Shown here: in pieces, positions 40,767 to 64,000 of the stretch | Layout of the letters: every line of letters starts with the position of its first letter | Position numbering within the stretch: position 1 is the stretch's first letter | Assembly: GCA_951406725.2 (NCBI GenBank) | Contig: OX597816.1 | Location: forward strand, 71,982,001-72,046,000 | Direction: 5' to 3' | DNA from: Octopus vulgaris | Taxonomy: Eukaryota | Length of the DNA: 64,000 bases | Notes under the pieces: generated by a model | Seen by the model: the letters and a program-made list of their open reading frames with translations, nothing else | Told to the model about the DNA's origin: nothing | Database searches by the model: none | Program-made: the position numbers and the translations under genes

Positions 40767-40822
40767 GTAACATATAAATAGATATTCTAATATTATTGCT
40801 TCATTTTACAAATGCCCTCTTT

Positions 40823-41256
40823 CAGGGTCGGATTAAGACCCATCAAGGCCAAGCCAAGCCAAGCACTTCAAAGATTTCGGTGACCCCATAAAAGATTATG
40901 TAATTCAAAATATAAACAATAACAAACCATGAAATAAATTTTTATTTTTCAAAACGAAACAAAACAGTAAGAGGGAAAATAATGTGTATTTTTGTTTAAT
41001 TCCACTTTATTTATATTTGAAAAGTTTCCTCCTACTTTTTTGAATTGCAAGGTCTTTGATCAGATCCTCAAAATTAATCTTAGGTAACACATCTGCACCT
41101 ATACTTCGTAGAGATAAAGGCATCATGAATATTATTTTAGCAAGTTTAAAGTGATTTCTTTCATGCCATAAACCAATTGCTATTTTTGTGGCACCCTCTT
41201 CTTCCCTTGAAGCCCTTAGCACGTGCTTATTTTACTCAATGGTTAATCCAGAACTG
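40823..41256 (-). mobile_element. Internally deleted hAT element
   Basis: TIRs cagggtcggattaa / ttaatccagaactg; 8-bp TSD CCCTCTTT; residual dimerisation-domain tail LSLRSIGADVLPKINFEDLIKDLAIQKSRRKLF. A related partial copy lies at ~42382-42607. Confidence 0.88.
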
Positions 41257-42607
41257 CCCTCTTTCCTCTCTATTTTGGTTTAAGAAAGGGTAAAGCAGAT
41301 ATTGGCTTTGATTCCTCTGATGTGTTGGTTTAGTTTAGCTTCAAGTCCGTTCTAATTCAGCAAGCTTAAGATGAAAGACATTCTTGCCACAACTGGCCTT
41401 AACCATCTTTTTTTTATTTTTTTTATCTTTTACTTGTTTTAGTCACTGCATTGCTGCCATGCTGGGGCACTGCCTTGCAGGGTTTTAGTCAAAAGAAAAA
41501 AAATCAACCCCAGTACTTATTTTTTAGTTTTGTAATTTCTTTCAATCCTGGTAATTATTCTATTGGTCTTTTATGCCAAACTGCTTAGTTCCAAGGACAT
41601 AGACAAACCAGCACTAGGTGTAAAGCAGTGGTAGGGACAAACCCAATCACATGAACACACTCATGCACACACACACACACACACACACACACGTATGTAT
41701 GATAGGCTTCCACACATTTTCTATCAACCAAATCTACTCACAGCTTTTTGGTTGGCCTGCGGTTCTAGTAGAAAACACTTTCCCAAGGTACCATGCAGTG
41801 GGACTGAATTCAGAACTGTGTAGTTAGGAAGCAAACTTCTTACCACACAGCCACATCTGCACTTGTTCACCTTTTATATTTTTGAAACAAACTTAATATG
41901 TGTCTTGACATGTTGTGTTTTGTCTCCCCCCTATCCAGTCCTTTGTATAAATATATCTGGGTTGTTTACTGTTCAGTAGATTAGGAGATTGTTATCCAAC
42001 TTAGAAACAAGCGGAAGTTAACGACAAAGGCATCCTGCTGCAGAGAACTCTACCGCTATGTATTCTTCTGTGATGGTCTATGTTATTCTTGGTTAACCCT
42101 TTCGTTACCAACCCAGCTGAAACCGGCTCTGTAGTACAAATGTCTTTTCGTAAATTTTGAATTAAAATCTTCCATCAAATCTTAGTCACAATTTGTGTTC
42201 TTAATGATAGCTAAGTTATTTTACTAAATTCTTTGTGATATTTAAAATAATTGAGACACAGAGCTTCTCAAAATAAGCATATTAATGAAAGGGTTAATAC
42301 TGTGATGGTAAAAGTTTTGCTTGACATATCAAAGTTAAAAACTTTTTTTTAATAATCCTGTTACTAGAGTGTCACATGTATCTGGGCTGGATAATGGACC
42401 CACTGAGCCTCTAAGCACTTAAAGGATTTTGGTACCCCCATATGTATGTAATTCAAACTATAAACAATAATAAACAATAAAATAAATTTTTATCTTTCAA
42501 AAGGAAACAGAACTAATAGTTAGCTGGAAAATGTTAATTTTTGTATACTTCCATTTCATTTATATTTGAAAAGTTTTCTCTTATTTTTTTAATTGCAAAG
42601 TCTTTTA

Positions 42608-43250
42608 CATTATTTACATTCGACGGATATTTGTCCTCATCTTGTTTGTTGTCAGGACAGTATTCAAGAGTAATACAACACTTCACAAATATCTCCTTCA
42701 AGTAAAACCACCAATAGAAGAGAATATGACCAAAGACTGTGTGTATTCCATCCCATGCAGCTGTGGCAGGTTATACAAAGGCGAAACATGCCGCTTCCTC
42801 AAAATAAGGGTAGACGAACATCACAAAGCTGTGACACAACGAGATATTGATAAATCGGGCATAGCTGATCATGTATGAAAAAATGGAGATCACCTGTGGT
42901 ATGAAATTAAAATAATAGACAGATAACACCACTGGAAAATACGAAAACTAAAAGAAGCAGCACATATGCTAGGACACAACAACCTCCTAAGCAGACCAAG
43001 TGCAGATATGAGCAGCATATGAGCAGCATATGGGAACAGGTAATAAGGAAGGATAGAAAAATATTTAGATTTATAAGCCCTAAAATTCACTCCATAATTG
43101 CCCATGGGCATATGGCATAGGGGTTAAGAGCACGGGCTACTAACCCCAAGATTCTGAGTTCGATTCCAAGCTATGACTTGAACAAAAATAATAATAATAA
43201 TAATATCAAAAAATACCTTATGAATGAGAACCCAGGTTTAAAATTTCCCC
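42608..43250 (+). mobile_element. Penelope-like element 3' fragment (GIY-YIG endonuclease)
   Basis: RTVFKSNTTL...CVYSIPCSCGRLYKGETCRFLKIRVDEH...KSGIADHV...WKIRKLKEA; flanked by terminal-repeat pieces in inverted arrangement. Confidence 0.88.
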
Positions 43251-44247
43251 ATTTACTATGTTCTTATTTTAATGGTTAACCAGGCTCTGATGTGTATTCA
43301 TGTGTTTTAGGTAAGTATTTGCAGAGAAGTATTTGAAAATGATATTGGGGGGATATTTTTTGGTTTCAACCTCCATTGCATGACCTCTAAAAGTACATGG
43401 CATGTTAATGCTGACACACATCATTAATCTAAAATTCTTCTGAGCTACATTATCTGATATCACCTTCCTTATGTCAGGAAAGTGTTAGGTGTAATTTAAA
43501 GGTAATTTAATTGCTGCTTGAAGAACACATTGTATAATGTATTTTAGATACATTATCATTACTTAATGGCCATTTTCCATGCTGGCATGGGTTGGACAGG
43601 AGCTAGTAAAACCAGGAGCTGCACCAGGTTCCGTTGTCTGTCTTGGCATGATTTCTATGGCTGGATGCCCTTTCTAATGCCAGCCACTTTACTCAGAGTA
43701 CTGGGTACTTTTATGTGGCACTTGCATCAGTGCATTTCATGTGTTACCAGCACTGACAGGATCACCAAGCAACTTGCAAGACAAAATTCTCTGGCTGGGA
43801 GTGGGGCGTAGTATTGAGGCAGGGGTGGCTTTGTGTTACTTGAGAGATTAACGGTATTGAGGAATAAAGCGGCGAGCTGGCAGAAACGTTAGCATGCCGG
43901 GTGAAATGCATAGCCGTATTTCGTCTGCCGTTACGTTCTGAGTTCAAATTCCGCTGAGGTCGACTTTGCCTTTCATCTTTTCGGGGTCGATAAATTAAGT
44001 ACCAGTTACACACAGGGGTCGATGTAATCGATTTAATCCATTTGTCTGTCCTTGTTTGTCCCCTCTGTGTTTAGCTCCTTGTGGGCAGTAAAGAAATAGG
44101 TATTGAGGAACAAAGATAGGTGTCTTGTACTATGTTTAAATAAAAGATAGGGTGATCACAATTGGAATACTCGATAAGGACTGACCTGGGCTAAATAACA
44201 ATGATATTAGAACCTTGCTGATTATGGAATACTTTTTGTCTTTTCAG

Positions 44248-44342
44248 GAACTGATGAGGAAACAATTATAAATGTATTAGCATACAGGTCAAGCCCACAA
44301 CGTCAAGAAATTTTGAAGAGATTTAAAACTATGTTTGGAAAG
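44248..44342 (+). CDS. Coding exon 11: annexin (G)TDEETIINVLAYRSSPQRQEILKRFKTMFGK
   Basis: ttttcag / aag|gtaaga; 95 nt, a typical annexin exon size. Confidence 0.96.
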
Positions 44343-45381
44343 GTAAGATACAAGAAAATCCATTACTTGCAAAATAAATCTGGGAGTGAAGAGTGATGGA
44401 CATAACTGTATGTCTCTAACATTGATGTAAGGGGCCACAGCCTCGTGGGAAAGATATAAATGATTAAATCGAGACACTGTGAAACTCATTCAACCCATGA
44501 CAACACAGAAAAATAAATAGAAAACATGCAAGTGAAATTGGGAGGTGAACATTGCAAGAAGCCCATTTTATATATATATATATTCAAAATAAGCAACAAG
44601 GATATCCAAGGTAGTGTAGTACAATCGTTTCATGCTACTTTATTTTATTAAACACTGTAAGTATTACATCAGTTTTGCTCAACATTTTAAAACTGATGTA
44701 ATACTCACAGTGTTTAATAAAATGAAGAAGCATGAAACGATTGTACTACACTACCTTGGATATCCTTGTTGCTTATTTTGATTCTAATCACCCCATTTGA
44801 TTTATATGGATAATACCATACAAAATTCTGGTGCCTTTAACTTAAGTACTATATTCATCTGAATCTAAATTTTGCTGAACTTATATATATATATATGATA
44901 TATGTGTGTGTTGGTGTTTTCTTCTTGTTTTCATGTGTGTTCCTTGAATCAAATACAAGGTCACTGCTCATACAAATGGTGTCATTTGTTTGCAATCTTC
45001 TTCAAGACATGTCCAGCAATTGGTCTGCAAGGACTGTGGAGAAACATTGGTTTTAAATTTTGGCACAAAGCCAGCAGTTTTGTGAGAGGGGTCAAGTGAA
45101 TTAAATCAACCCCAGTGCTCAACTAGTACTTGTTTTATTGAGCTTGAAAGGGATGAATGACAAAGTCAACCTTGGTGGAATTTGAACTCAGAACGTAAAG
45201 ACAGATGAAATGTTGCTAAGCATTCTGCTCCGTAATGATTCTACCAGCTTGCAACCATACCTGTGGGAGATATTACCTTGCTTGGAAACCAGTGTGGGTC
45301 AGCAACAGAAACAGTATCTAACAACAGAAAAACTTGCTTCAACAAGTTTTGTCTGATCCATACTGGTATGGAAAAGTGGAT

Positions 45382-45893
45382 GTTAACCCTTTCATTACCA
45401 TATTCATTTTGAGATGCTCTCTGTTTCTTTCAATTAATTTTAAATATAGCAAAGAATTTAGTAAAATAACTTAGTTATCATTCAGCTAGTGTTAGAAACA
45501 TAAATTGTGACTAAAGTTTGGTGGAAGATTTTAATTCAATACTTATGAAAACAAAAAAATTGTACTACAGTTTTGTACAAAGCCGGTTTCAGCCAAGTTG
45601 GTATCAAAAGGGTTAAGAATTGTTTCTCTATTATATATTTAACCCTTTTGTTACCATATTTCTGTTGAGATGCTTTGTGTTTCTTTCAATTAATTTTAAA
45701 TATAACAAAGAATTTAGTAAAATAATTTAGTTATTATTAAGCTAGTGTTAGGAACATAAATTGTGACTAAGGTTTGGTGGAAGATTTTAACTCAAAACTT
45801 ATGGAAACAAGACATTTGTACTATCGAACCAGAACTGGTTTCAGCCGGGTTCGTATCAAAAAGGTTAAGAATTGTTTCTCTTTTATATATTTT
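45382..45893. mobile_element. Two tandem piggyBac-like MITEs (TTAA|CCCTTT...AAAGGG|TTAA)
   Basis: Copies at 45382-45616 and 45639-45868; an opposite-orientation relative at ~42092-42296. Confidence 0.75.
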
Positions 45894-45965
45894 AGAATGA
45901 TAGAATTAATAATTAGGATGGTAACAATTATGATGACATATATTTCTGTTCCTTCTCTATTTTAG

Positions 45966-46079
45966 GATTTAGTTGCAGAATTGAAAAGTGAACTGAGTGG
46001 TAATCTATGCGAGTGTGTGAAATCTCTATGTATGGCACCAGCAGAATTTGATGCCAAGCACCTCCGAAATGCTATGAAG
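45966..46079 (+). CDS. Coding exon 12: annexin DLVAELKSELSGNLCECVKSLCMAPAEFDAKHLRNAMK
   Basis: ttttag / aag|gtaagt; 114 nt, a typical annexin exon size. Confidence 0.96.
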
Positions 46080-46145
46080 GTAAGTTCACATAATTCTTCT
46101 TTAGTGAATGATATATAACATACATATTAACTTTATATATTTATC

Positions 46146-46480
46146 AAGGCGCGTGGCTCTGTGGTTAGAGCTTCGAACTTATGATCATGAGGTTGTGAGT
46201 TCGAATCCCAGACCTGGCTGTGTGTTGTGTTCTTGAGCAAGACACTTTATTTCACGTTGCTCCAGTTCACTCAGCTGTAGAAATGAGTTGCAACGTCACA
46301 GATGCCAAGCTCTATCGGACCCTTTGCCTTTCCCTTGGATAACACTGGTGGCAGGGAGAGGGGAGGCCGGTATGCATGGGCGACTGCTGGTCTTCCATAA
46401 ACAGCCTTGCCTGGACTTGTGCCTGGGAGGGTAACTTTCTAGGTACAATCTCATGGTCAGTCATGACCGAAGGGGGTCTC
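46146..46480 (+). mobile_element. tRNA-derived SINE family D
   Basis: Head ggcgcgtggctctgtggttagagc...gagttcgaatccc; a near-identical copy at ~12085-12420. Confidence 0.8.
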
Positions 46481-46759
46481 AGCAGCAGTATTTATCAATC
46501 AACCTCTGTGCATAACCAGTAGGATGGCATCATTCAAAAGCTACAACAATGTAAGGAAGCACATTGTGACTAGTTGTGTATAACAACATTCGATAATTTG
46601 ATTGATGCAGTGACCATATATGACGTGATTTACCTATCTAATAACTAATATGTAGTATAACTTGCATTTTGTATATATAACATATAATATACACCATAAC
46701 TTAGTTATAACATATCTAGTATATAGTATAACTTAAGGATTTTATATATAAAAAGGAAT

Positions 46760-47040
46760 ACAAAAAATGGGACAAGAACGCAAAACATCCAGGCAGATGA
46801 TACAAAAAAGGGACAACAAAACATCCAGACAGATGATACAAAAAAGGGACAACAAAACATCCAGACAGATGATACAAAAAAGGGACAACAAAGCATCCAG
46901 ACAGATGATACAAAAAAGGGACAACAAAACATCCAGACAGATGATACAAAAAAGGGACAACAAAGCATCCAGACAGATGATACAAAAAAGGGACAACAAA
47001 ACATCCAGACAGATGATACAAAAAAGGGACAAGAAAAAAC
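46760..47040. repeat. 36-bp minisatellite (acaaaaaagggacaacaaaacatccagacagatgat), ~7.8 copies
   Basis: Directly visible; produces spurious 12-aa repeat ORFs on both strands. Confidence 0.95.
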
Positions 47041-48766
47041 AAGGACGGGTCATTCGGAGTTTTCTTTCCTCAGTTGAGTTCCAGATTACCTTTGCAATTT
47101 CAGCTTGTTATACTTGAGATTGCTCCAATCTGGCCAGCCCCAAGGAAAAAACTAAGCTAAGAGCACTATGTCTAATATGTAATATATAGCATAACTTACA
47201 TATTGCATGCCTAGTATTTAATATTTAATATAAATTACTCATCATAGATTTACAAGACAGTATATGTAATTGTTTAGCTCCCAGGTCAGCCACAGGGTTG
47301 CCATTGATCAAGGTCAACTATACTTCTACACATGTATGGACAGGCCAGGGCAAGTTTTTTTTTTTGTATTTTTTTGAGGGGGACCAGCAGAGGTGGGGAG
47401 ATTTATGGGCATGCAAGCCTCCTCACTCTCCTTGGAACCAGCACTGCTTGATACTTTTGTTTTCACAAACGTTCTGTCAGAATGCAAGGAGCTGGAACAG
47501 ATACTGCAACACAACTAGTCCAACCCTTTGACAATTCTACTAATCTACTGCCTTAGACTGGTACATTTTTTTATTGACCCCCTAAAGTATTAAAGGTAAA
47601 GTTGACCTTGGTGGGATTTGAATTCAGATTGCAGGGGGTCAGAACAATTACCAGGAGATATTGTATCCAACTCTCTATTGACTCTGTCAATTCACCAATT
47701 CAAGTCAATCCTGAATGCAAAGGTTTGTGTATTTTATTCAGCCATAATATATCTAGGACTGTCCGATGTATCTTTCTTCATTTTAATACCGTGATGTGAT
47801 TTGAAGGATACATGATTGCTATTTCTAGCAAGGTGTGTAATCATCATTGATTCAATCAATGAGGTATCAAAGTTGTAACTTTATTTCCTTCTCAGCTGAT
47901 GAACTCATTAAAACAACAATAGAAGCTACCATTTGATCTGTTTCAGAGAGTATATAAGCATATTTGCTTTTTTGCTTCTCTGTCATTCTAATTCAACAAG
48001 TATAGATAATTCAATATGGAAACAATAAGTTGTTCAGATTTATGAATGTATTTGTAATTATATGTATTCGTGTATGTATAAAATTGTCTCATAAACTTAG
48101 CAGTTTGACAAATAGAGATCAATAAAATCAGTACAACATTTAAAATAAGTATTGGAATGATTATGATCAACTAAACCATTAGTGTTTCAGTATGGCCGCA
48201 GTCCAATGACTGAAACCAGTAAAAGAATGAAAGAAAAATCAAAGGCAGGGCACAGCCCTGGCTGTTTGGTTTAGAAGATACTTCCCAGCCATGCAACCAT
48301 GGATTCAGTTCCACTACACAGCACCCTGGGCTGGTTAATGCCTCCTGCGCAGCTCCAAATATTACCTTGCTTGGAAGCAGATGAGGGTTGGAGACGGGAA
48401 AAGCACCCAGTTGTAGAAAATCTGCCTTATCAAATTCTAATTGACCCAGGCAAACAAGGAAAAAATTACATTAAAAAGATGATGATAATAGTATTGTTGA
48501 GGGTCAGTCTACCCCAAATAATGCTTTTATGGGGGTGACACTTTTGGGATCTGCTGTATAAGGTTGGAGGGAGTGCATACTCAAGGGCTGCCCCAAGTGG
48601 CACACACTCTAGCTACGTTACTGGATAATGATGAATGTACCTACAGCTATTCAGCCAGTATGTCTTGTATTTCCTTTGTTGAAGGTTACCGTATTATTCT
48701 AGAAGAATAATCCCATCTCAGCACATTATGTTTTATGAGTTATTCAGTTGCTGAAATTTCTTCCAG

Positions 48767-48857
48767 GGTCTTGGAACTGATGAAACCGTCCTTATTGAGA
48801 TCCTCTGCACACGTTCAAATGCTCAAATCAAAGAAATCATTTCAACTTATAAGAAAA
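48767..48857 (+). CDS. Coding exon 13: annexin repeat 2 GLGTDETVLIEILCTRSNAQIKEIISTYKK(I)
   Basis: ttccag / aaa|gtaagt; 91 nt. Confidence 0.96.
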
Positions 48858-48879
48858 GTAAGTTATAATAATAATAATG

Positions 48880-49205
48880 AAATTATTGAATACAGTGCTC
48901 AGGTGCACCAACACTTGTCAAAAGTGCGTATAAAGTATATGCAGTAATGTACAAATGTCTGGAAAGTGAACGGTGTACGAGTCAAATACATGCTTGCGTG
49001 TGTATGGAGGGGAGAAAATCAGGTGTAGTGTTGGCGAATCTCAGGAAGCATGGAAGTTTTGAAGGATGCAGTGCTCCGTCAACTAACAACTGATGCCAGC
49101 AGTTTGTTCCATGCTTCAGCAACTCTTAGCGTGAAAATATGTTTCCAAAAGTCATGGGAGCTGTGCTGTTTTCTGATTTTGTAAACATGTCTACGGGTGT
49201 TAAAC
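48880..49205 (-). mobile_element. CR1/L2-type LINE 3' end
   Basis: Minus strand TRRHVYKIRKQHSSHDFWKHIFTLRVAEAWNKL...SFKTSM with an (att)n-type tail. Confidence 0.8.
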
Positions 49206-50190
49206 AGATGGAGTAACTGATTCTGTTCCACCATTGTTATGTACAGTTACACATCTGTATGATTAAGAAGGGTTGGGCATGGTTGTCTAACTAAAAGATT
49301 TATTTTGAAATCATGTAGTTTTGGGGTGTCTGTCTCCTGCACAGTACCTTGGGCAAATGTTTTCTACTCTCATTCCAGGCTGATCAAAGGCTTGTGAGTG
49401 AATTTAGTTGATGGAAATTGAAAGATGCTCACATAAATATTTCTTAAGCAATAATATCATTGTCAGTGACTTCGAAGTTTCAACCAGCTCGGCCATCATC
49501 CAACAATGGCTTAGCTGTCTGAAATTTTGAAGTTACCGTCTGTGATATTCTTGTTTAAGAATAATAAATTTGCACTCTACATAAGAGTAGAGTAACCCAT
49601 CAGATTAATGTAAAATTGTTTTTATCATAATGAACATTAATATATATATATATGTGTGATGTGTGTGTGTGTAAATATATATTTTCTTTACTAGTTTCAG
49701 TGCAAGAGCTTCAGCCATGCTGGGGCGCTACTGTTACACATACGTGTGTGTGTGTGTGTGTGTTCTTGACTTGATAGCATGTAATTGTTGTAAATGAATG
49801 ATATTCATTTCCAATATTCTGTGAAAACCTTGTCTGACCATGGTTTTGGAAATAGGCAAGAGTTGGCAACAGGAAAGGTATCTTGGACAGAGAAAAATCT
49901 ACCTCTTTAATCTGTTTGACATGTGCAAGCATGAAAAATTAGACATTGAAATTATGGCATATATCTGTCTGTCTATATATATCCAAAGAAAACATCTGTT
50001 TTATATAAATAAGCAAGATATCTGTATATTCACAGAATTGTATTTGACAAGTTTGAAAGACGAACGAAAGCGCTAATATGAAAATGAAGATATAATAATA
50101 AGAAAAGTTCTTTCCAAAATTCTGACAAATTTTTTTCAATATTTAATTCTTTACATCACACCTAACACTACACACACACACACACACACA

Positions 50191-51081
50191 CAGAGGGTGT
50201 TTCAAAAATTTAATATCATTTGAGATGTAAATATCACAGAAACTACATAGTCAAATCAATTGAAACTAAACAAGCTTAATGTTGAGCAACATAAGGTTTA
50301 TTCCTCCAAATTTGAATGAGAAATTCAAAGGTATGTGGATTCCATGAATGATTTCACAAATGTTCAATATGCGTACCACCTGAAACACGGCCCACGTCAA
50401 GTCGGTAGTCCAGCTCCTCCCAAACACACTGCAGCATGTCTTGGGTAACAGTCTCCAGTGCGGCAGTGATTCTCTGCTTGAGTTCCTCTAGGTTTGCAGG
50501 AAGTGGGGTTGACATACACCAGGCCCTTCACATAGCCCCATGTTTGTACTTTCGCTGGTCATCTGCCATTATGGTCTGAATGAGCTACAGCTTGTAAGGT
50601 TTCATTAGCAAGCATTTCCTCAGGATGCACCAAACTGTCGTTGGAAGGATTTGGGTTTCCAGACTTGTTCTTCTGATGGACTTCTTGGGGCTTCGCAAGA
50701 GTTTTTGGCGAACCCAGTCAACTGTCTCTTCCGATGTTAGTGGTCATCCAGATCCTTTTGCCCTACACAGACAGCCTCCCTCTTTGAATTTTTTCTGCTA
50801 TGTCCAAATTTGCATTCCTGTTGGTGACTTTTTAGAGAACTCCCTCGCAAATGCACCCTGAACAGTCTTGCTCGACTGTGTCTGAGCATACCCCAACATA
50901 CAAAACGCCTTTTTTCTTTCAGTGAATGCTATTTCTATACCTGAAAAGATAAACTTATCAAACACTAAACATAAAATTTTAACCTGTTTCTACACATGCT
51001 GTTAAAATTTGAAGCTACTTGAACAAGAACTGGAAAATTTATTAAATTGCAAAATGATATCAAGTTTTTTGAAACACCTTG
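50191..51081 (-). mobile_element. Internally deleted mariner-type element (DUF4817-HTH, rosa/DD41D-like)
   Basis: TIRs gggtgtttcaaaaa..atatcattt / aaatgatatc..tttttgaaacacc. Minus-strand remnants: KAFCMLGYAQTQSSKTVQGAF...SPKKSIRRTS...KPYKL and WGYVKGLVY...LEELKQRITAALETVTQDMLQCVWEELDYRLDV..GTHIEHL; catalytic core deleted. Confidence 0.82.
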
Positions 51082-51097
51082 TGTGTGTGTGTGAGTG

Positions 51098-51130
<33 letters not shown>

Positions 51131-51494
51131 GGAGAGTTTGCGAAAAAAGCAAAAGACGAAGACAGGTGGTGTACAAAACAAACAGATGTATTAGTATAAT
51201 GCTCAGGAATAGAAAAAGTCTTTTACGTTTTGAGCCTATGCTCTTCTACAGAAAGGGACACAGAAAAAAACAAGGGGAGAAAAAAATGTGTGTAGTGGCT
51301 TACGATCTATCATGGCGACTATATATATACTATATATAGTATATATATACACACACACACACACACACGCATACACATGTCTGAGAAGTAAGCTTTTTAA
51401 ATGCACCACTACACTGGTACCTAAAATATTACTATTTTCTATTTCTATATTAATAGTATTTATTTTTTTTTCCCATGTTCTTTTACTCCTTCAG

Positions 51495-51821
51495 TTTTCA
51501 ATCGAGACTTAGAGAAAGACATAATTTCCGAAACATCAGGACACTTCAAGAGACTCCTTGTGGCACTGGTGACTGCCAACCGAAGCGAAAGCAAACAAGT
51601 GGACCGGAACAAAGCCAACCAGGATGCTAAAGCAATGTACCAAGCCGGGGAAGGCAAATGGGGAACCGATGAGTCAAAATTCCATACCATTCTCATCACT
51701 CGGAGCTACCCTCAGCTGAGGGCCACATTTGCCGAATATGCAAAGATATCCCGTAAGAGCATTGAGGACGCCCTGAAGAGTGAACTCAGCGGAGATCTTT
51801 TGACTAGCATGCTTGCTATTG
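51495..51821 (+). CDS. Coding exon 14: annexin repeats 2-3 FNRDLEKDIISETSGHFKRLLVALVTANRSE...GEGKWGTDESKF...KSELSGDLLTSMLAI(V)
   Basis: cttcag / ttg|gtttgt; 327 nt; repeat-3 GExxWGTDE motif. Confidence 0.96.
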
Positions 51822-53329
51822 GTTTGTGTTTTGATTCTTTTTATTTGATTTTATTCTTTTGCAAGTTTGTCATTCTATCGTGGCCATGCTGGGGCACCAC
51901 TTTTAAGGATTTTGATAAATTATATCTATTATAGGTAAAGGCATGGCTGTGTGGTTAAGAAGTTTGCTTCCCAGTTTCATGGTTTGGGGTTCAGTCCCTT
52001 GCTTCCCATCCACATGGTGCCAGGTTTAGTTCCACTGTATGGCTCCTTAGGTACATGTCTTATACTAAAACCCCAGGCTAACCAAAATCTTTTTAGTGGA
52101 TTTTGTAGATGGAAGCTGAAAGAAACCTCTGTGTGTGTGTTAATGTTTGTGCCTCTTTGTCTTAAGGTCATGCAATAGTTGTAAATGATTGTCCCTGTTA
52201 TACAAGCAGTGTCGTTCATTTCCGATATTCTGCAACAACGTGTCCAGGAAATATTACCTTGCTTGAAAACTGGTGATGGTTGGTTACAGGAAGGGCATCC
52301 AGCCATAGATTATCTACCTCAATAAATTTCATTTGACCTTTGTAAGCATGGAAAAGTGAGCATTCAGGCGGTGCTCCAGCATGGCTGCAGTCAAATGACT
52401 GGAACAAGTAAAAGGATAAAAGGATTAAAACAATGAAAAATGCTAGAAGTTGAGCTTCCGTTTGCATCTATCAAATTCACTCTCAAAGGATTGGTCAACC
52501 AGAGGTTATGGCCGAAGCCAGTTACCCATTGTTCCATGTGGGATTGAACCTAAAACCACTTAACTCAAAACAAATTTTTTTACCACTTGGTCATGCTTAG
52601 GTCAAAGTTTTTTGATGGAAAGGTGTCATGTAGCCTACTTTTATAACCCTTTAATATTCAAATTACTGTCAAATGAAATGCTTATATGTTCACATTGTCG
52701 TCGCCATTTAACATCTGCTTTCCATGCTGGCATGGGTTGGACGATTCGACTGAGGACTGTTCACATTCATTTGAATTTATCATGCATTATATTGTGGCTT
52801 CAAGATTTTGATGATGTGATTATTGATTTTAGAATGACATTGTTTGTTAGGTGTGAGAGGTCAGATCTGGCCAGTTTGAACATTAAAACAGAATATCTAG
52901 GCCAGATATGTCCAGCATGAATACTAAAGGGTTAGGATGTGGGATAACAGTTTTTTCACTTTTCGATTATTATTCATTTATCTGCTCCTCTAATCACCTT
53001 CCTCAATACTACATCCCCAATCGGTGGAAGGGTCTTGTCTTACAAGTGACTTGGTAATGTTAATCGTGTGGGGCCCTGAAAAAGTACCCAGTACACTCAG
53101 TAAAGTGGTTGACAATAAGAAGGGCACCCAGCCATAGAAATCATGCCAAAACAGATATTGGAGGTTGGTGCAGTCTTTGGACACATCTGTTCCAGTTGAA
53201 CTGTTCACCTTGTGCCAGTATGGCAAATTGAATATCAAATGGCGATAATGATTATCTGATTGTAATCTGATGAAACCTATGATGCAGAAACTTAGTGTAG
53301 AAATAGGAAGAATAACCAGTAAATGCATG

Positions 53330-53364
<35 letters not shown>

Positions 53365-54644
53365 ATAAAGAATAGTGAGAATTTACAAAAAAGAAAACAA
53401 AAGACAAAGATGGGTGTGTAAACAACAAATAGATGTATTAGTTTAACGCTCGGGAAGTGAGAAAGTCTTTTACGTTTCGAGCCTACGCTCTTTGACAGAA
53501 AGGAACACAGAAATAAACAGGGAAAGAATATATATATAACTATATATATAGTGAGAATTTACGAAAAAACAAAAGACAAAGACAGGTGTGTAAACAACAA
53601 ACAGACGTATTAGTTTAACGCTCGGGAAGTGAGAAAGTCTTTTACATTTCGAGCCTGCACTCTTTGACAGAAAGGAACACAGAAAGAAACAGGGAGAGAA
53701 AATAAAAATGGTTTAGTGGCTAGCAATCAATCATGGCAAATGCTGGACAGAGGGGTCACAGAGGAGAGCTGAGAAGAAGGGGAGATGGCTTAAAGAACAC
53801 CCATTGTGTACAGGACATCACAAACGAGTGAAAAATATGTAAACATACAAGAGATAAGTACAGGACAAAATAGCGAAAAATACACGATAAGTACAGGACA
53901 TCACCAAGGAGTGAAAAATACGTAAACACATAACGAGAGTTGAGTAAGGGATAAAATACCAAAAGAAGTCTTAACTCCTCTTCAGTTGTCAACTGTTTAT
54001 TACTACCTGTTTTGTTCTTTCAACAAATATATGTATGTATGTTATGTGTATATATGTGTGTGTGTGTGTGTGTGTGTGAATATATATATATAATCAAAAT
54101 AAGCAACAAGTATATCCGAGGTAATGTGGTACGATCGTTTCATGCTACTTCATTTTATTAAACACTAAGCATTACATCAGTTTTAAAATGTCTTAAAATG
54201 TTCTTAAGGAGGAAATCAACCTCTCTGTCTGTATATCTACCCTCTTTATAATCTTGGCACATAAATTAGGGATAAGAATGTGCATTGTCTGATTGTTTGG
54301 AAAATTTCTAAAGGTGGCTGAAGATTGCTCGACATTTTAAAACTGATGTAATGCTTAGTGTTTAATAAAATGAAGTAGCATGAAACGATTGTACCACATT
54401 ACCTCAGATATACTTGTTGCTTATTTTGATTGTAATCACCCCATGGATTTATATGGATAATACCATACAAAATTCTGGTGCCTTTGACTTAAGTACCATA
54501 TTCATCTGAATCTAAATTTTGCTGAACTTTATATATATATATACACACACATACACACACACATACACACACACACACACACATACATGTGAGAGGAAAT
54601 CCACAATTTCCTACATGCATATTATATGTGTATTTATGTGCATG

Positions 54645-54678
<34 letters not shown>

Positions 54679-54904
54679 TATACAATCACACACATAAAAG
54701 AGGAAACCTTTTATGTCACAATTTCCTTTTCCATTTATCTCAAAAAATAATAGATTTTGAACCTAATTAAAAAGGCAAAAAATGGAATAGTTATTTTGAT
54801 ACTATTTAATTTAGTTTAATCCGGACGGATATACAATTTGAACTTCAATAAATCACGCTCAAAACACGTCTGATTGTATATGTCTGATTTTCTTCTCATT
54901 AAAG

Positions 54905-55086
54905 TGCGATGTGTCCAAAACAAAGCCAACTATTTTGCTCGTCAACTGATGAAATCGATGCAAGGTTTGGGCACGGATGATGACACTTTGGTCAGAGTTG
55001 TTACATCACGCTGTGAAATTGATATGGTGCAGATTAAGAAAGAATTCTTCAACCTCGCAAGCCAAAAACTGGAAGATTATATATCT
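54905..55086 (+). CDS. Coding exon 15: annexin repeat 4 RCVQNKANYFARQLMKSMQGLGTDDDTLVRVVTSRCEIDMVQIKKEFFNLASQKLEDYIS
   Basis: AAG acceptor after a pyrimidine tract, tct|gtaagt donor; 182 nt. Confidence 0.95.
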
Positions 55087-55089
55087 GTA

Positions 55090-55392
55090 AGTTCTCTTCG
55101 TCCTTCCTTTCCTCTCTTTTTTCTTCTTTCTCTATTCCTCTTTCTCTTTCCTTCCCTCTCCCTCTCCTTCCCATTTTCTCTCTGACTCTCCATTTCCTTC
55201 TCCTCCCTCTCCTTTTGTCCCCTTCTCTCCCTCCCTCCCTCCCTTTCTTTCTCTTTCCTTCCCTCCCCTCTCCCCTTCTCTCTCCTTTCTCCCCTTCTCT
55301 CTCTCCCTCTTTCTCTTTCCTCCCTTTCTCTCTCCCTTCTTTTTCTCCTCTTCTCTCTCTTTTCCTCTCTTTTTCCCTCTCTTTCTCTCTTA
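55090..55392 (+). repeat. ~300-bp polypyrimidine (CT-rich) tract directly after the exon 15 donor
   Basis: Almost purine-free on the + strand. Confidence 0.9.
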
Positions 55393-55623
55393 TTTTGCAA
55401 ATCATTTACATCACTTAATGTATAAAAAATATGTTCTTTAATCTTTTACTCATCTTAGTCATTAGAAAACCATGTGAGAGAACCATTTTGAAGGATTTAA
55501 TCAATCAAATTGAGCTCCGTACTTAATTTTTTTGTGAAACCAGGTACTTATTCTGTCAGTGTCTGCTTGCCAAACTGCTAAGTTATGGGCTTGTAAACTA
55601 TCCACCACCAGTTGTCAAATGGT

Positions 55624-55668
<45 letters not shown>

Positions 55669-57427
55669 GCACGACAATATATTCATATTCTCTCCCTTTC
55701 CAGAAGGGAAAACCATGAATTTACTTCTTAAACAAGACACCTGCTCCTGTCCCTCTGTTTTATGCATTTGGTGACCTTACTAGTGCTGGTGCCAGGAAAA
55801 AAGCACCCACCTTATACACTCTGTAAAGTGGTTGGCATTAAGAAGGTTGTCTAGCTGTAGAAACCATGTCAAAGCAGACACTGGGGCTCAGCATGGCCCT
55901 TCTGGCTCATTGATTTCTGTAGGAATGGAAAAAAAAACCCATTAAATATTGATGATGAGGAATCTATTTCGAAATGCCGCCTTGAGAACAAGAGGTTTTG
56001 GCAAAATATAAGTGACCAGATTAACCAAACAAGATGACCTGACAAAAGCATCAAGATCAGGAAGAATTAAAGGCGCAACTGATGGTTTCAAACAAGCAGG
56101 AAGTTAGCAGCATGACTACTCTGAAAAAGAAATTCTGTTAGTATTGAGATATCTCACAATTGACTTTTCATCTGATGATTGCCGTCCACGAAGTTTGAAG
56201 TAAGGAAAAAGTAGTTAACTACAGCAACACTGGTTCAATGCATTTCAACAAGAATGATAACATCAGTTGATTTGACCTTTAACAGCCTGCATCTGGTCAG
56301 TTACTATGGCTCTGATGACAGTTTCTTGAATTTTTCTTTCTATATACTGATAAACAAGTGCAGAAACTCTTGTCCAAGTAAGTGGTCTGCCGTTACATTC
56401 TGAGTTCAAATTCCGCTGAGGTCGATTTTACCTTTCATCCTTTCGGGGTCAATAAATTAAGTACCAGTTACGCACTGGGGTCGATGTAATTAACTTAATT
56501 TGTTTGTCCCCTCTATATTTAGCCCCTTGTGGGTAATAAAGAAACATATTAAAGATCAAATCAACTGATGTTATCATTCTTGTTGAAATGCATTGAACCA
56601 GTGTTGCTGGAGTTAACTACTTTTCCATTACTTCAAACTTCATGGACGGCAATCATCAGATGAAATATCATGAGGTATCTTGACATGGGACATTGAGAGG
56701 ACATGCCCAGATATGGATGTACAACATATTTTAAACTGAGGTGGCTGCATTTCACTTGCCTGCTCTTTAGAGAATCAATTTACTGCAGCAATCTGTTGTT
56801 TGGGTCATAACTTGACTTGATTTGAGACAGCATTCACCCGGGGTGGGTTGAGCTGGCTTCATTCATCCTCAATGCTGCATCTCTCACAAATGCTGACCAG
56901 GCCTGGCGATTTGTGGCTAACGACCGCATGATCTCCAACCACTCCTTATTCCAGCGGCGAACGCCGTAGATATGGGGGTCTAGGTTTGGGTCATAAACTG
57001 TTTATAGTGAGATGCATTTTTTGTTCATCTTCATCACAGTTAACAACAATGTCTCTTAGAGTTTTCTTCTATACTGCTGTTGCTAGTTCAAATCCAGATG
57101 ATTGGGACCATGTCATACATGTCTAAGAATAATATACTTAATGTCAATGAATGATTAAATCAATCAAAAGTTAAAGATATACTGTCTATAAATGAGGTTC
57201 TTAGTAAGTCAAATATCTTGAAATCCTTCAGCTTTTTATTTATTTATATATAATGTGTGCTGTATGTGTGTGTGTGTGTATATATATGTATAGAGAGAAA
57301 GAGAGAGAGGTGTATGTACTAAAGGATCATGCCTGCATCTCTTGTTTTGCAGTAGAATTGATTTTTCCTATTGGAAATTCCGTTTTATTTCGCATGTCAT
57401 ATTGATATTTTGTTATTTATTTTACAG

Positions 57428-57506
57428 GGTGATATCTCAGGAGATTACCTAAAGATAATTTTAGCCTTAGTCTCTGGTGGAAAACCTCCTGATTTAAATG
57501 TCATGG
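57428..57506 (+). CDS. Coding exon 16: end of first annexin core GDISGDYLKIILALVSGGKPPDLNVM(G); GC donor (read-through stops at TAA 57539-57541)
   Basis: ttacag acceptor; GDxSGDY motif; TGG|GCAAGT gives the phase 1 needed by exon 17. Confidence 0.85.
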
Positions 57507-57769
57507 GCAAGTTACCATATGGCTTTTTCCTTTATTTATAATTAATTTTCTTTTGTTACACACATATATACATGTATATCTTAAAATATTCTATTTTCCA
57601 TCTGGACTTCCTTGCAGTTGTGTGTAGTGGATGTGCAGAAATTCAAATGCTATTATTTACTGTTACTACTGTTTACTGCAAATGCCAAGTGTTTAAGCAA
57701 TATCAAACAGCTGTTGTGAAAGTAGTGATTTCTAGAAAGAGTATGCAGTGAAAACTTTTAAAATACTGC

Positions 57770-58420
57770 TCACCTTTTCCTTCTTTGGTCACTAAACTCT
57801 GCTTGCAAAGACCTGTTGAGGCAAGTGAAATCACAATCAAAATCAAATTCGACGACTGGCATCTGTGCTAGCGGGGTGCAAAGAGCACCATAGAGCATCA
57901 TATGAGGGTGATCGTTGACGGAGCGGCTAACTGGCTTCCGTGCCAGTGGCACATAAAAGGGCACCATTCGAGTGTGACCGTTACTAGCGTCGCCTTACTG
58001 GCACTTGTTCTCGTGCTAGTAGGGTGCCAAGAGCACCATCCAAGCGTGATCGTTGCCAGAGCAGCCAACTGGCTCCATGCTGGTGACACGTAAAAGGGCA
58101 CCATTCGAGTGTGATCATTACCAGCATCGCCTTTCTGGCACCTGTGCCGGTGGCATGTGTAAAAAGATTCGAGCGAGGTCATTGCCAGTACCGCCTGACT
58201 GGCCCCGTGCTGGTGACATGTAAAAAGCACCCACTACACACTCGGAGTGATTGGCGTTAGGAAGGGCATCCAGCTGTAGAAGCTCTGCCAGATCAAGATT
58301 GGAGCCTGGTGCGGCCGTCTGGTTTGCCAGCCCTCCGTCAAAATCGTCCAACCCATGCTAGCAAAATCGTCCAACCCATGCTAGCATGGAAGGCAGACGT
58401 TAAACGATGATGATGATGAT
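57770..58420 (+). mobile_element. SINE family C with internal tandem subrepeats and (GAT)n tail
   Basis: ...ggcgttaggaagggcatccagctgtaga...ccaacccatgctagcatggaa..gacgttaaacgatgatgat. Other copies near 14564-, 27453+, 28018-, 32721-, 33230+, 34582-, 37250-. Confidence 0.85.
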
Positions 58421-59414
58421 CAACTGCTTCTTATCAATCATCCTCATGATTCAAAATACACTGACAATTTACTTTTGCTTATTCCAGTGTAATAGGATTA
58501 CTTTACAAAATGTATGCAAAGGAATATAGAAGACAAATTCAGTGACTTTGGACATTTTTTGCCATATGTTTAAACAAAATTTATATAACTTTATATCTCA
58601 GATTTTAGTTGTATTTACCTTGTACTTAAAGTAGTTTTGAGACAAAAATTCCTCCATGCATTTATATGAATAATCTATTTCTTTATTACCCACAGGGGGC
58701 TAAACATAGAGGGGACAAACAAGGACAGACATGGGGATTAAGTCGATTACATTGACCCCAGTGATTAACTGGTACTTATTTAATCGACCCCGAAAGGATG
58801 AAAGGCAAAGTCGACCTCGGCGGAATTTGAACTTACAACGTAACGGCAGATGAAATATTGCTAGGCATTTCACCCCAGGCATGCTAACGTTTCTGCCAGC
58901 TCGCCGCCTTATTTATATGAGTAATCTGTTAGTAAAAGGGTAAAGACCAAATTCTACATAGCAGAATCTCTACCAAAATCAGCTTAAAATGAGCATTCCT
59001 ATTACTTTACAAATTATATGATCTCATGACTATCTCAAAGAATTCTTGGCTAAAGCATTTAACCTCCCCCACTTATAGTAAAATAATAAAACTCTTCTAG
59101 CACACATCCTATTTCATGTCAGAATCACCAACTGAAATAATACCTCTATTGAATTCTAAAGCTTGTTTTAAGTGGATAGAATTACAAAACACTGAACTGT
59201 GTAAATTTACAAAGACAATGATGGACTATTTATTTTGTGAGGTATAAAGAGTCACAAAACAGTCTAACCATTCTGCCAATACATCACATGAAGTTTACAA
59301 ACACTGTCTTATGCTCTGTGTGTGTGTGTGTCACAATACTATTTTCCATTGAGTACTCTTTTTGTGTCTTTGTGTGTGTACTTTTATCATGTCTATATTA
59401 TAAAACCACTTCAG

Positions 59415-59500
59415 GAGGAAAGGCTCTGGTGCAGTCAGTTAAGAATAAAAGTGTAAAGCAATTAGATAAAGAAGTGAAAATGGAATCCGAAGATGTACAG
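59415..59500 (+). CDS. Coding exon 17: inter-core linker (G)GKALVQSVKNKSVKQLDKEVKMESEDVQ
   Basis: cttcag acceptor, cag|gttagt donor, phase 1 to 0; C-terminal MESEDVQ resembles MEVEDIE preceding core 1. Confidence 0.78.
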
Positions 59501-60969
59501 GTTAGTATAGATTTATTGAACTTCTTATAACAGTACAGCATTTCATCGGTCATTACATTACAGCCCACAGTCAATAACATACAGTATTTTCTTAACCAGT
59601 ACGATGTTCTCTATAACTTTTACTCTTTAACTTGTTTCACTCATTTGACTGCAGCCATGCTGGAGCACCACCTTTAGTCGAACAAATCGACCCTAGGACT
59701 TATTCTTTGTAAGCCTAGTACTAATTCTATCAGTCTCTTTTGCTGAATCGCTAAGTTACGGGGACATAAACACACCAGCATCGGTTATCAAGCGATGTTG
59801 GGGGGGGGGGGTGGACAAACACAAACACACATATATATATATATACACGTATATACACGGGCTTCTTTCAGTTTCCGTCTACCAAATCTACTCTCACTAG
59901 GCTTCGGTCAGCCCGAGGCTATAGTAGAAGACACTTGCTCGAGGTGCCACACAGTGGGACTGAACCTGTAACCATGTGGTTCGTAAGCAAGGTACTTACC
60001 ACACAGCCACTCCTGTGCCTATTGTACAGAACACTTCAATATTTTATTGTCAACTTGATATTCTTCCTCAGCAATTAAAAAAGCTGTGAAGTTATAACAG
60101 GATTGCTGAGCCATTGAAGGCACGTGGCTTAGTGGTTAGGGTACTCACCTTATGTTCGTAAGGTCATGAGTTCGATTCCTGGTGGCATATTGTGTCCTTG
60201 AGCAAGACACTTTATTTCACATTGCTCCAGTCAACCCAGCTGGTAAAAAAGGAGTAGCAACGGTATTTCAAAGAGCCAACCCTGGTCACATCCTGTGTCA
60301 CACTGAATCTCTCTGAGAACCACATGTCTGTGGAGTGCTCAGCCACTTGCATGTTAATTTCACAAGCAAGCTGCTCCACTGATTGGATCAACAGGTGGGG
60401 GACAAATACATACACAAACACACACACAAACATATAAATATACACAACAGGCTTCTTTCAGTTTCTGTCTACCAAATCCACTCGCAAGGCTTTGGTTGGT
60501 CTGAGGATTTTAGTAGAAGACACTTGCCCAAGGTGCCACACAGTGGGACTGAACCCATCATAACCAACAGAGTGCCAGTTATTTTGCTAAATTCTTTATT
60601 ATTTTCAAAATTGATTGAAACAAAGTTAGTGTAGGTCAACATCAATATGGTAGGTGTGGCTGCATGGTAAGAAGTTTGCTTCCCAACCACACGGTTCTGG
60701 GTTCAGTCCCACTGCATGGCATCTTGGGCAAGTGTCTTCTACTATAGCCTCAGACCAACGAAAGCCTTGTGAGTGGATTTGGTAGACAGAAACTGAAAGA
60801 AGCTTGTCTTGTATATTTATATGTTTGTGTATGTGTTTGTCCCCCACTATCACTTGACAACCGGTGTGTTTACATCCCTGTAACTTAGCAGTTCAGCAAA
60901 ACAGACTGATACCAGATTTTACAAAAAAAAAGACAAATTTAAAAAATAAATACTGGGGTAAATTCCTTC

Positions 60970-62450
60970 AATTAAAATAATATTCATTTTATTTAGCCTC
61001 TAAAATACTTAATATTTTCACGATTTAAAATGCAAAATAACAATATTCGTTTTATTTAACCTCTAAAACGGTTAATATTTTCTCAATTAAAATGCAAAAT
61101 AACAATATTCGTTTTATTTAACCTCTAAAATACTTAATATTTTCATGATTTAAAATGCAAAATAACAATATTCGTTTTATTTAGCCTCTAAAATACTTAA
61201 TATTTTCTCAATTAAAATGCAAAATAACAATATTTGTTTTATTTAACCTCTAAAATACTTAATATTTTCTCAATTAAAATGCAAAATAACAATATTCGTT
61301 TTATTTAACCTCTAAAATACTTAATATTTTCATGATTTAAAATGCAAAATAACAATATTCGTTTTATTTAGCCTCTAAAATACTTAATATTTTTTCAATT
61401 AAAATGCAAAATAACAATATTTGTTTTATTTAACCTCTAAAATACTTAATATTTTCTCAATTAAAATGCAAAATAATATTCATTTTATTTAACCTCTAAA
61501 ACGCTTAATATTTTCTCAATTAAAATGCAAAATAACAATATTCGTTTTATTTAACCTCTAAAACGCTTAATATTTTCTCAATTAAAAGGCAAAATAACAA
61601 TATTCATTTTATTTAACCTCTAAAATACTTAATATTTTCTCAATTAAAATGCAAAATAACATTATTCGTTTTATTTAACCTCTAAAATACTTAATATTTT
61701 CTCAATTTAAAATGCAAAATAATATTCATTTTATTTAGCCTCTAAAATACTTAATATTTTCTCAAGTAAAATACAAAATAATATTTGTTTTATTTAACCT
61801 CTAAAATACTTAATATTTTCTTAAGCAAAATAATATTTGTTTTATTTAGCCTCTAAAATACTTAATATTTTCTCAATTAAAATGCAAAATAATATTTGTT
61901 TTATTTAACCTCTAAAATACTTAATATTTTCTTAAGCAAAATAATATTCGTTTTATTTAGCCTCTAAAATACTTAATATTTTCTCAAGTAAAATGCAAAA
62001 TAATATTCATTTTATTTAGCCTCTAAAATACTTAATATTTTCTCAATTAAAATGCAAAATAATATTCATTTTATTTAGCCTCTAAAATACTTAATATTTT
62101 CTCAAGTAAAATGCAAAATAATATTTGTTTTATTTAACTTCTAAAATACTTAATATTTTCTCAATTAAAATGCAAAATAATATTTGTTTTATTTAGCCTC
62201 TAAAATACTTAATATTTTCTCAATTAAATGCTAAATAACAATATTCATTTTATTTAACCTCTAAAATACTTAATATTTTCTCAAGTAAAATGCAAAATAA
62301 TATTTGTTTTATTTAACTTCTAAAATACTTAATATTTTCTCAATTAAAATGCAAAATAATATTTGTTTTATTTAGCCTCTAAAATACTTAATATTTTCAC
62401 GATTTAAAATGCAAAATAACAATATTTGTTTTATTTAACCTCTAAAATAC
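60970..62450. repeat. AT-rich minisatellite, mostly 59-63-bp units (aaaatgcaaaataacaatattcgttttatttaacctctaaaatacttaatattttctcaatt), ~24 copies
   Basis: Directly visible; ends ~13 nt before the exon 18 acceptor. Confidence 0.95.
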
Positions 62451-62463
62451 TCTTATATTCCAG

Positions 62464-62545
62464 GAAGATCCTACAGTGTTTCCTTATAATCCATTTGACC
62501 CTGAAAGTGATGCAAAAATACTACAGAAAGCTATGAAGGGCTTTG
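62464..62545 (+). CDS. Coding exon 18: start of second annexin core EDPTVFPYNPFDPESDAKILQKAMKGF(G)
   Basis: ttccag / ttg|gtaagc; PTV.P..PFDP..DA..L.KAMKGFG is the classic first-repeat motif; same phases (0/1) as exon 10. Confidence 0.93.
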
Positions 62546-63490
62546 GTAAGCACTTAATGAACTTTATAACTTAAATGAATCTGTTTCCATAATGACAAGT
62601 ATTGGGTTCTTTTACTTGGAATAGGGCAGGATTTTTTTTTATTAGATGGAGGTCAGTTTTTGACAAGGTGCACACATACAATTGTTTCAATGTACAGGAG
62701 AGTGTTCAAATAGGCTGAGGGAAACCAAGCAAGGATTCGTAACAGGAAGGGATTCTGACCATAGAATATTGCCTCAATAACATCTCATCTCATACATTTC
62801 ATCAGAGAAGATGTGGATATAAAAACAAGAATTCTGTTTTCTATCATTTAGTTCCTTTGCTTAACCTTAGTTCTTTAAAATAGCGATTTCTTAGAATTAC
62901 TGTATTTTGATGTGTATAAGAAACCCTTTTTTGTCAAAATTTAGGTTAAAAAAATTTGGGAGTTTCTCATACATGGATAGTATTATAATCCTGTGCAAAA
63001 CCTTTTTTCCAAATTTTAAACACCCCAAAATTAAGTAAAAATACAGTATATCAACTGTGATACTTGTTGGTTTATTTGTGTCCTCATAACTTAGCAGTTT
63101 GGCTTCATTAAACCCCTCAAGGTGGTGCCCCAGCATGGTAGCAGTGTAAAGACTGAAATAAATAAAAGTCAAAATGTAAAAGATATACCCTCACCACCAC
63201 CACTGAAGATGTACGACAAAGAGAATTTCAGCAGGATTTGAATTCAGAGGCTTAATAACTAAATATTGTTTTTTGACTTAAAATATTGTTATGGAGGCAA
63301 GAAAAAGTAAACGAACAGAAAACATTATGCCCCTTGTTCCCCTTTGTTGGAATTGAACCGGCGCTCCAGTTGTTTAGGACAAAGGAAATACCATTGTCCT
63401 GTCAAAGACCACGATTATTAATGGTCCTAGGCATTGATCTATAGTCCCCACATAGTCACGGAAAGTTAAAAAAAAAAAAATGCTACCCGT

Positions 63491-63526
63491 TATAAATACG
63501 GCTAGCATTAAGTTAGTTAGTCAGTT
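63491..63526 (+). promoter_or_regulatory. Candidate core promoter: TATAAATA with TCAGTT initiator ~30 nt downstream
   Basis: TATA at 63491, Inr at 63521-63526, followed by a GC-richer purine-rich segment. Confidence 0.35.
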
Positions 63527-64000
63527 GGTAAGGAGCAGTCAGCGAGAAACCGTGAGAGGGTTGTGTGAGCGGAGTGGACAAGGGAGTGAGTTCGAGATGG
63601 TGGAGTCGGCGAGAGGCAGCAACAAAGATGACAGGCGTGGTCTAGAGAGAGACACAGTGAGTGTGAGAGAGAGAGGTAGTAAGGAAGATGACAGTGAAGG
63701 GGCAGAGAGAGACATAAAGAAGCCGGACTGTTATAGTGGAAGTTTTGTGATGTCAGGGGGTGTTGCAGGCGAGGAATATGCGGTAATGTTTTATTTGTGT
63801 TTTGAATTTCGATGTTTAAATGATTGAAAAAGAAAGAGAAAGAAAAAAAAGCGTGTTGTGGGCTGTTTTCAAAAGAAAAGAAAAGGAAGAAAAGAAAAAA
63901 GAACCTGGAAATGTTTTTGTTTTAAAAAGCAGACGGAACTTTGTGAACTGTTGTGTTAAAAAGAAAAGGGGGAGGAGAGTAGAGCTATAAGAGACTGCTG

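Follow-up and report, generated by a model that had tools for sequence, protein, structure and literature searches.

A DZANK1-type head ahead of two annexin tetrads in an octopus gene named annexin A6-like

Does a single gene of Octopus vulgaris encode two annexin cores, each a tetrad of repeats, and if so, where does such a gene belong among the annexins? The question is raised by a stretch of 64,000 nucleotides (nt) on contig OX597816.1 of assembly GCA_951406725.2 (G000:C3:71,982,001-72,046,000, here called the window; contig position equals window number plus 71,982,000). An earlier note on window positions 57428..62545 had read there the start of a second tetrad, continuing the frame of the first, and had proposed an octad or larger annexin arisen by an independent duplication. 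This reading, partly supported, turns out to be right but incomplete; the unusual feature lies upstream of those positions, in a head derived from DZANK1. We are highly confident of the anatomy, one chimeric gene that joins a DZANK1-derived head to two complete tetrads, and we judge it modestly probable that its protein, for which one splice is inferred, links ciliary-base microtubules or LC8 to membrane, as a tether switched by calcium.

The gene lies on the + strand and comprises 24 coding exons, whose joined coding sequence (CDS) of 3,249 nt translates, letter for letter, into P0002, a protein of 1,082 residues that its source database names 'annexin A6-like, Octopus vulgaris'; the gene model itself is thus already public, under a misleading name. 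Pfam recognises eight annexin repeats in P0002 (PF00191), which make up two full tetrads. The new repeat 1 proposed at 62464-62545 is borne out, and the short exon expected to carry the frame into it does so (59415-59500, 86 nt). The 95, 114 and 91-nt exons predicted further downstream are found beyond the window, followed by exons of 327, 182 and 57 nt, the last ending in TAA. Exon 18 shares its end phase with exon 10 (85 nt, phase 0 to 1), and the internal exons of 95, 114, 91, 327 and 182 nt have identical sizes and phases in both tetrads, with a linker of 42 residues in all between the annexin cores. Because these exon sizes and phases are shared between the tetrads, and the 327-nt exon is absent at the four other octopus annexin loci, tetrad 2 is a copy of tetrad 1 and no captured neighbour. 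The octad proposed by the earlier note stands, and the larger array does not: TAA follows repeat 8 (window-continued position 71699), no further annexin motif occurs in the 40 kb past this stop, within the 48 kb examined beyond the window, and a Pfam search of the octopus's own genome returned no further annexin match on that contig.

The head measures 414 residues and carries folded domains ahead of the annexin cores. Pfam places an Fn3_assoc domain at residues 34-103, BLASTP aligns P0002 with DZANK1 over residues 3-113 (39%, E 4e-17) and residues 288-358 (E 5e-6), and profile-profile alignment of the head with DZANK1 gives 99.9%. The sole sequence match of exon 2 in the PDB is human DZANK1 (11xu, E 1.2e-7). 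The octopus chimera and DZANK1 agree in the aligned position and the phase of four introns, and each gene has, between two of these, a 104-nt exon of phases 1 to 0; the comparison uses DZANK1 exons 1, 2, 11-end and 12 only, since the boundaries of exons 6-10 are unreliable and the residue numbering is shifted from exon 6 on. A GTQ-I/V/T motif is present in 50 of 53 head-plus-annexin proteins and in 1% of shuffles of the octopus segment, and its counterpart in DZANK1 reads GTQT or ATQT; this TQ motif is a candidate site of the LC8 type. Given the two shared domains, the TQ motif and the four shared intron positions, the head is, as judged from sequence and gene structure, derived from DZANK1, a protein of the ciliary transition zone.

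Not all of DZANK1 is found in the chimera. Pfam detects neither zinc ribbons (DZR) nor ankyrin repeats in P0002, the former being present in P0126 and the latter in both P0126 and P0140. Elsewhere in the genome exon 2 matches once, on contig C6, in a gene with zinc-ribbon and ankyrin exons which is 100% identical to O. sinensis DZANK1 over the 72 residues searched, and the octopus retains there a separate, intact-looking DZANK1. A DZR search of the genome itself returned no match, though single exons score weakly for DZR. In an Atlas search the head found only generic bacterial Fn3_assoc clusters, and P0140 only chordate DZANK1 clusters.

As for the annexin part, the type II calcium site is defined by a GxGT loop and a D or E about 40 residues on (PMC3588008, accessible part). 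All eight repeats, four per tetrad, have a GT loop with D or E exactly 40 residues later, and in alignment A1 all eight acidic caps are kept in 35 of 35 octad rows, all the loops as well in 32 of these. The AlphaFold model comprises two confident annexin lobes (block-mean predicted local distance difference test, pLDDT, mostly 77-95) and a head with an Ig-like domain at about residues 1-106, a helix-hairpin at about 300-360 (this second domain at pLDDT of about 50-80) and disordered spacers. Searched with Foldseek, this model matches annexin VI best and then single annexins, with a root-mean-square deviation of about 2 Å over about 311 columns, and the five-helix repeat fold is recovered, the template modelling score to the target being 0.91-0.95 for most single annexins. 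The protein is predicted to bind membranes in calcium. Weak Pfam matches to Myb, Med14 and RPAP3 overlap the annexin cores and were disregarded.

What might a protein built in this manner do? Its head would dimerise with LC8 bound and occupy the docking place of DZANK1 on transition-zone doublets, and the flexible K/P-rich spacer would let the annexin lobes reach ciliary or vesicle membrane at a rise of calcium, at which the annexin cores would clamp anionic membrane; the doubled core could add avidity or let one molecule bridge two membranes. DZANK1 has been located at the ciliary base, and it binds DYNLL1/2 (PMC4617706, in the text available), and its dimer, with an LC8 dimer, has been assigned to transition-zone A-microtubules (accessible portion of 10.64898/2026.06.11.731632). 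In the larvae of oyster, flatworm and urchin, ciliary cells co-express unspecified annexins (10.1101/2023.01.04.522730, available text), and 'annexin7' appears in ectodermal precursors of an annelid atlas (10.1101/2020.10.16.342709, as far as accessible). We regard the ciliary tether role as an evenly balanced prediction.

Several points weigh against it. In the accessible part of PMC4617706, NINL is bound by the zinc fingers of DZANK1, which the chimera lacks; the available text of 10.64898/2026.06.11.731632 leaves the tubulin-touching residues of DZANK1 unstated, and the parts retained in the chimera may not dock; and the larval single-cell study leaves its annexins unspecified in the accessible text (10.1101/2023.01.04.522730). 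The TQ motif is absent from three of the 53 members, reads TQI rather than TQT, and stands about 90 residues ahead of the second domain as against about 30. The head is far removed from DZANK1 (branch 0.61), the relative placement of domains in the model is uncertain (predicted template modelling score 0.42), support for the joint between exons 17 and 18 is indirect, and localisation and binding of the chimera are predicted only. A complex prediction with two copies of residues 188-362 and two of octopus LC8 scored 0.27 against a mark of 0.34, with the alignment unused, and counts neither way.

The same octad might instead adapt vesicle cargo to cytoplasmic dynein, or be an annexin of general membrane repair or trafficking, and not a fixed link of the transition zone, which we hold to be possible although the less probable course. 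The first description of DZANK1 concerned vesicle transport by dynein-1 (PMC4617706, accessible part), the octopus transcript is assembled in all four runs examined, from four studies, and all eight calcium motifs are intact; however, the NINL-binding zinc ribbons are absent, and the head domains have been kept from rotifers to octopus, which a generic repair annexin would not need. It is improbable that the protein is simply a large annexin, its head a relic of DZANK1 that either has no targeting role or has gained a new partner outside the cilium. The long branch from DZANK1 would suit a relic, as would two-tetrad entries without a head (P0023, P0033, P0038, P0042) and the flatworm tetrads of the same clade that also occur in short proteins (P0151, P0155), yet headless entries may be truncated, with P0023 and P0042 starting at the first MKG inside repeat 1, and the motifs of the head are under clear constraint.

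Do both tetrads belong to one transcript? Transcript evidence consists of contigs assembled from four of 24 listed runs, belonging to four studies and presumed to be RNA, none of the listed runs being on record as RNA. The joint 57506>59415, which the earlier note had singled out for checking, lies within one contig in each of the four runs, and none of them has an excess of depth past the GC donor of exon 16. In three runs the contig includes 906 nt upstream of exon 16, of which exons 10-15 account for 894 nt and the stretch common to two of the exon 9 donors for the other 12 nt, and this length fits the modelled splicing. All four contigs extend about 1,130-1,740 nt past exon 17, the CDS remaining at that point being 948 nt. 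Exon 18 had been expected, were it the start of a separate gene, to have its own ATG; it contains no Met, and an in-frame stop stands seven codons upstream. The sequence from the linker into repeat 5 is conserved across molluscs, and eight relatives of 1,043-1,159 residues are encoded on contigs of no more than 3.4-5.2 kb from ENA or Logan, too short for introns, so that these proteins come from spliced transcripts. From the missing start codon with its upstream stop, the conserved linker and the full-length relatives on short contigs, we infer that the splice 59500>62464 occurs.

It is very improbable that two tandem annexin genes were merged by annotation and that exon 62464 opens a separate paralog. 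Such a paralog would agree with the want of direct read support for 59500>62464, with a read-through of the GC donor that meets a stop 11 codons on, with an in-frame Met in exon 17 and thin cover of intron 16 in one run, and with the existence of single-tetrad relatives, but the splicing of exons 16 and 17 in all four runs, with contigs long enough for tetrad 2, tells against it, as do the exon 18, linker and relatives just described. The thin intron 16 cover and the Met of exon 17 (58980-59500) leave room for an isoform containing tetrad 2 only. In O. bimaculoides, the ortholog models P0005 and P0045 are missing part or all of tetrad 2, indicating that single-tetrad entries can be annotation gaps.

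If the tetrad was doubled within this gene, is the doubling that of vertebrate ANXA6? In the tree, the ANXA6 halves cluster with vertebrate A4, A5 and an A11-like sequence (support 99/95), and the mollusc and annelid halves form with single-tetrad members a separate group (93/99). Approximately unbiased (AU) tests were made by IQ-TREE constrained searches on 39 of 93 rows under LG+F+G4, a model liable to reject true clades (5 of 71 when the tool was tried out), and gave p 1.2e-7 for half-for-half orthology with ANXA6, 0.007 for a duplication in the octopus only, 0.35 for molluscs only and 0.53 for one duplication shared by molluscs and annelids, falling to 0.007 when rotifers are added and to 0.0004 with the priapulid as well. 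These results indicate a doubling that is independent of ANXA6, older than the mollusc crown, and has happened or been homogenised more than once; exchange between halves could also make the rotifer halves cluster. The independence from ANXA6 that the earlier note had supposed is thereby upheld, and a duplication special to the octopus is not. That the protein is the invertebrate ortholog of ANXA6, as its database name implies, is hardly tenable, since despite eight repeats, linkers of similar length (42 residues vs 35) and annexin VI as top structural match, the AU test opposes it, half 1 of the octopus protein is nearer to the second half of ANXA6 (48.9%) than to the first (45.2%), and the octopus halves share 58% with each other.

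The head has its own history. In the head tree, the 15 protostome rows group together as a clade (100/99), with the sea star branching off between the protostome heads and molluscan DZANK1, nearer to DZANK1; this tree is without deuterostome DZANK1, so that one old fusion and two fusions are indistinguishable, and the sea-star and priapulid tetrads are unplaced. The sea-star protein may represent the ancestral state or a separate fusion. In the history that we propose, a DZANK1 copy would have joined an annexin tetrad ahead of the protostome radiation, with doubling of that tetrad following later, probably more than once (molluscs with or without annelids, rotifers, priapulid).

How widely is the combination distributed? 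Head and annexin occur together in 53 of 277 proteins scanned, 39 of which have two full tetrads; the matches were taken from top-match listings and carry no claim of absence from vertebrates, arthropods or cnidarians. Head and octad are found together in cephalopods, a chiton, gastropods, bivalves, Owenia, bdelloid rotifers and Priapulus, the model of the last showing part of a third copy, possibly an artefact. A head with a single tetrad is found in flatworms (Macrostomum, a cestode, trematodes), a brachiopod (Lingula) and a nemertean (Tubulanus), some of these models being possibly truncated. Many molluscan copies are already annotated as 'annexin A6-like'. In the sea star Asterias rubens, P0140 (XP_033629438.1) has the head, ankyrins and one tetrad, and no zinc ribbons; its cluster also includes A. 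amurensis, the domain scan being of the A. rubens protein only.

Other combinations were observed among these sequences. Two of the flukes (trematodes P0138, P0142, P0155, P0151) have a G/Y/P-rich stretch between DZANK1 head and tetrad, and shorter trematode proteins labelled 'annexin A11' or 'annexin' share the same tetrad clade and are possibly alternative starts of one gene. Multi-tetrad annexins without a DZANK1 head include P0287/P0036 (acoel cluster), P0041 (Tubulanus), P0044/P0052 (amphioxus), P0051 and P0050, with 11-12 repeats in acoel and nemertean, 8 in amphioxus and 17 together with a fascin-like domain; where placed in the tree, their halves mostly cluster within their own lineage. 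P0048 of Babylonia (1,719 residues) presents a second fusion type, in which a Hemingway/CFAP97 domain, presumably cilia-associated, precedes 16 annexin repeats, and the N-termini of P0136, P0143, P0175 and P0234 look similar to it by eye. This suggests that ciliary domains have been joined to multi-tetrad annexins more than once.

Table 1. Exons and intron 18 of the octopus gene, in window numbering; exons 19-24 are numbered as continued past the window end
Feature	Position	Strand	Description
Exon 1	12903..13017	+	ATG and beginning of DZANK1-type Ig-like (Fn3_assoc) domain; phase-1 intron aligned with that of DZANK1 exon 1
Exon 2	15220..15373	+	Fn3_assoc core; Pfam PF13287, E 3e-12; phases 1 to 2, like DZANK1 exon 2
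Exons 3-4	22403-22544, 24818-24962	+	End of Ig-like domain, then weakly conserved segment, predicted disordered
Exon 5	26899..27062	+	Conserved GTQ-I-N motif (residues 201-205), candidate LC8 dynein light chain site; short helix
Exons 6-8	28498-28690, 30226-30329, 33416-33491	+	Second DZANK1-shared domain, predicted two helices and beta hairpin, about residues 290-362
Exon 9	36662..37038	+	K/P-rich spacer; three donors 36810, 36903, 37038
Exons 10-16	40682..57506	+	Tetrad 1; sizes 85, 95, 114, 91, 327, 182, 79 nt
Exon 16	57428-57506	+	Ends tetrad 1 without stop; GC donor, phase 1
Exon 17	59415-59500	+	86 nt; inter-tetrad linker
Exon 18	62464-62545	+	Opens repeat 5 and tetrad 2; 82 nt, phase 0 to 1
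Intron 18	62546..64000 and on past window end	+	Exons 19-24 outside window
Exons 19-24 (window-continued)	64447-64541, 65185-65298, 67433-67523, 67811-68137, 70333-70514, 71643-71699 (TAA)	+	Remainder of tetrad 2

Some further features of the locus may be added to those in Table 1. Exon 9 contains an internal repeat, its three donors are in frame and set the length of the spacer, and isoforms P0001-P0004 differ there; contig starts in the assemblies fit the use of at least two of these donors. Two introns of the gene are of the GC-AG type, after exon 6 (28691) and after exon 16 (57507), the second being confirmed by contigs. A tandem array of about 25 copies of a 59-bp unit occupies 60974-62459 and ends 4 nt before exon 18, leaving the acceptor at the edge of the array. 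Open stretches within introns, at 30899-31354, 42570-42875 and 10775-11209, resemble what we take, from their motifs, to be fragments of Tc1/mariner transposases and retroelements.

No description of a DZANK1-annexin fusion or of this octad family was found in the literature searched, most subscription papers lying outside its coverage, and the DZANK1-annexin chimera of protostomes is apparently undescribed. Other invertebrate octads have reportedly been mentioned in older annexin reviews. The accessible part of PMC3795353 has no molluscan annexins, and 'eight' and 'fusion' are not matched in it. The usual picture of an annexin head is of something short or disordered (PMC12249911, available text), and a 2014 survey stated, in its accessible part, that extra domains in eukaryotic annexins were as yet undescribed (PMC3894181). 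The head described here, folded and taken from a ciliary protein, has persisted in molluscs, annelids, flatworms, rotifers and a priapulid, offering a testable candidate for calcium acting on a membrane-microtubule link at the cilium base, in animals with ciliary-band swimming or feeding. The chimera is also a natural deletion series, displaying the parts of DZANK1 that persist once zinc ribbons and ankyrins are gone. As statements of orthology, the 'annexin A6-like' labels of dozens of invertebrate entries are wrong, and the doubling of the tetrad looks recurrent, not unique to ANXA6. We tentatively suggest, as a doubtful extension, an unnamed family as old as bilaterians, in which an LC8-dimerised DZANK1 head, a scaffold binding transition-zone doublets, would be hard-wired to annexin cores, so as to connect microtubules with membrane under calcium gating at the ciliary gate. 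Vertebrates would have lost the family, heavily ciliated protostomes would have expanded it repeatedly to eight repeats, and the sea-star protein would be the surviving intermediate.

Among known systems, vertebrate annexin A6 (PDB 1avc, 1m9i) is close in architecture, having like the octopus protein eight repeats in two tetrads with a short linker, and supplies the best Foldseek matches, but its halves are not orthologous to the octopus halves, its entries are mostly about 660-675 residues long with a short head, against a 414-residue head in 1,082 residues, and domain III of its second tetrad is without a type II site (PMC3588008, accessible part), whereas the octopus protein has all eight motifs. 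The long-tailed single annexins (A7, A11, B12-like and those of four other octopus loci) share the canonical tetrad with its calcium motifs; unlike the chimera, however, the A7 and B12-like examples seen have low-complexity heads rich in G, Y and P, the 327-nt exon is absent from all four other octopus loci, and the three of these that were reconstructed to the end are without the intron before the last GD-x-SG motif, which both tetrads of the chimera share. DZANK1 has in common with the chimera the N-terminal Fn3_assoc domain, the second helix-hairpin domain and the four intron positions and phases, together with a TQ motif that in the chimera reads TQI and is differently spaced, and the chimera differs from it in the loss of zinc ribbons and ankyrins, with annexin cores in the place of the ankyrins. 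The sea-star P0140 resembles the chimera in its DZANK1-type head without zinc ribbons followed by an annexin tetrad, and differs in keeping the ankyrins and a TQT-GLFYP motif, in having one tetrad, and in a head nearer to DZANK1 than to the protostome clade. The octopus protein is thus an annexin, and is neither ANXA6 nor DZANK1.

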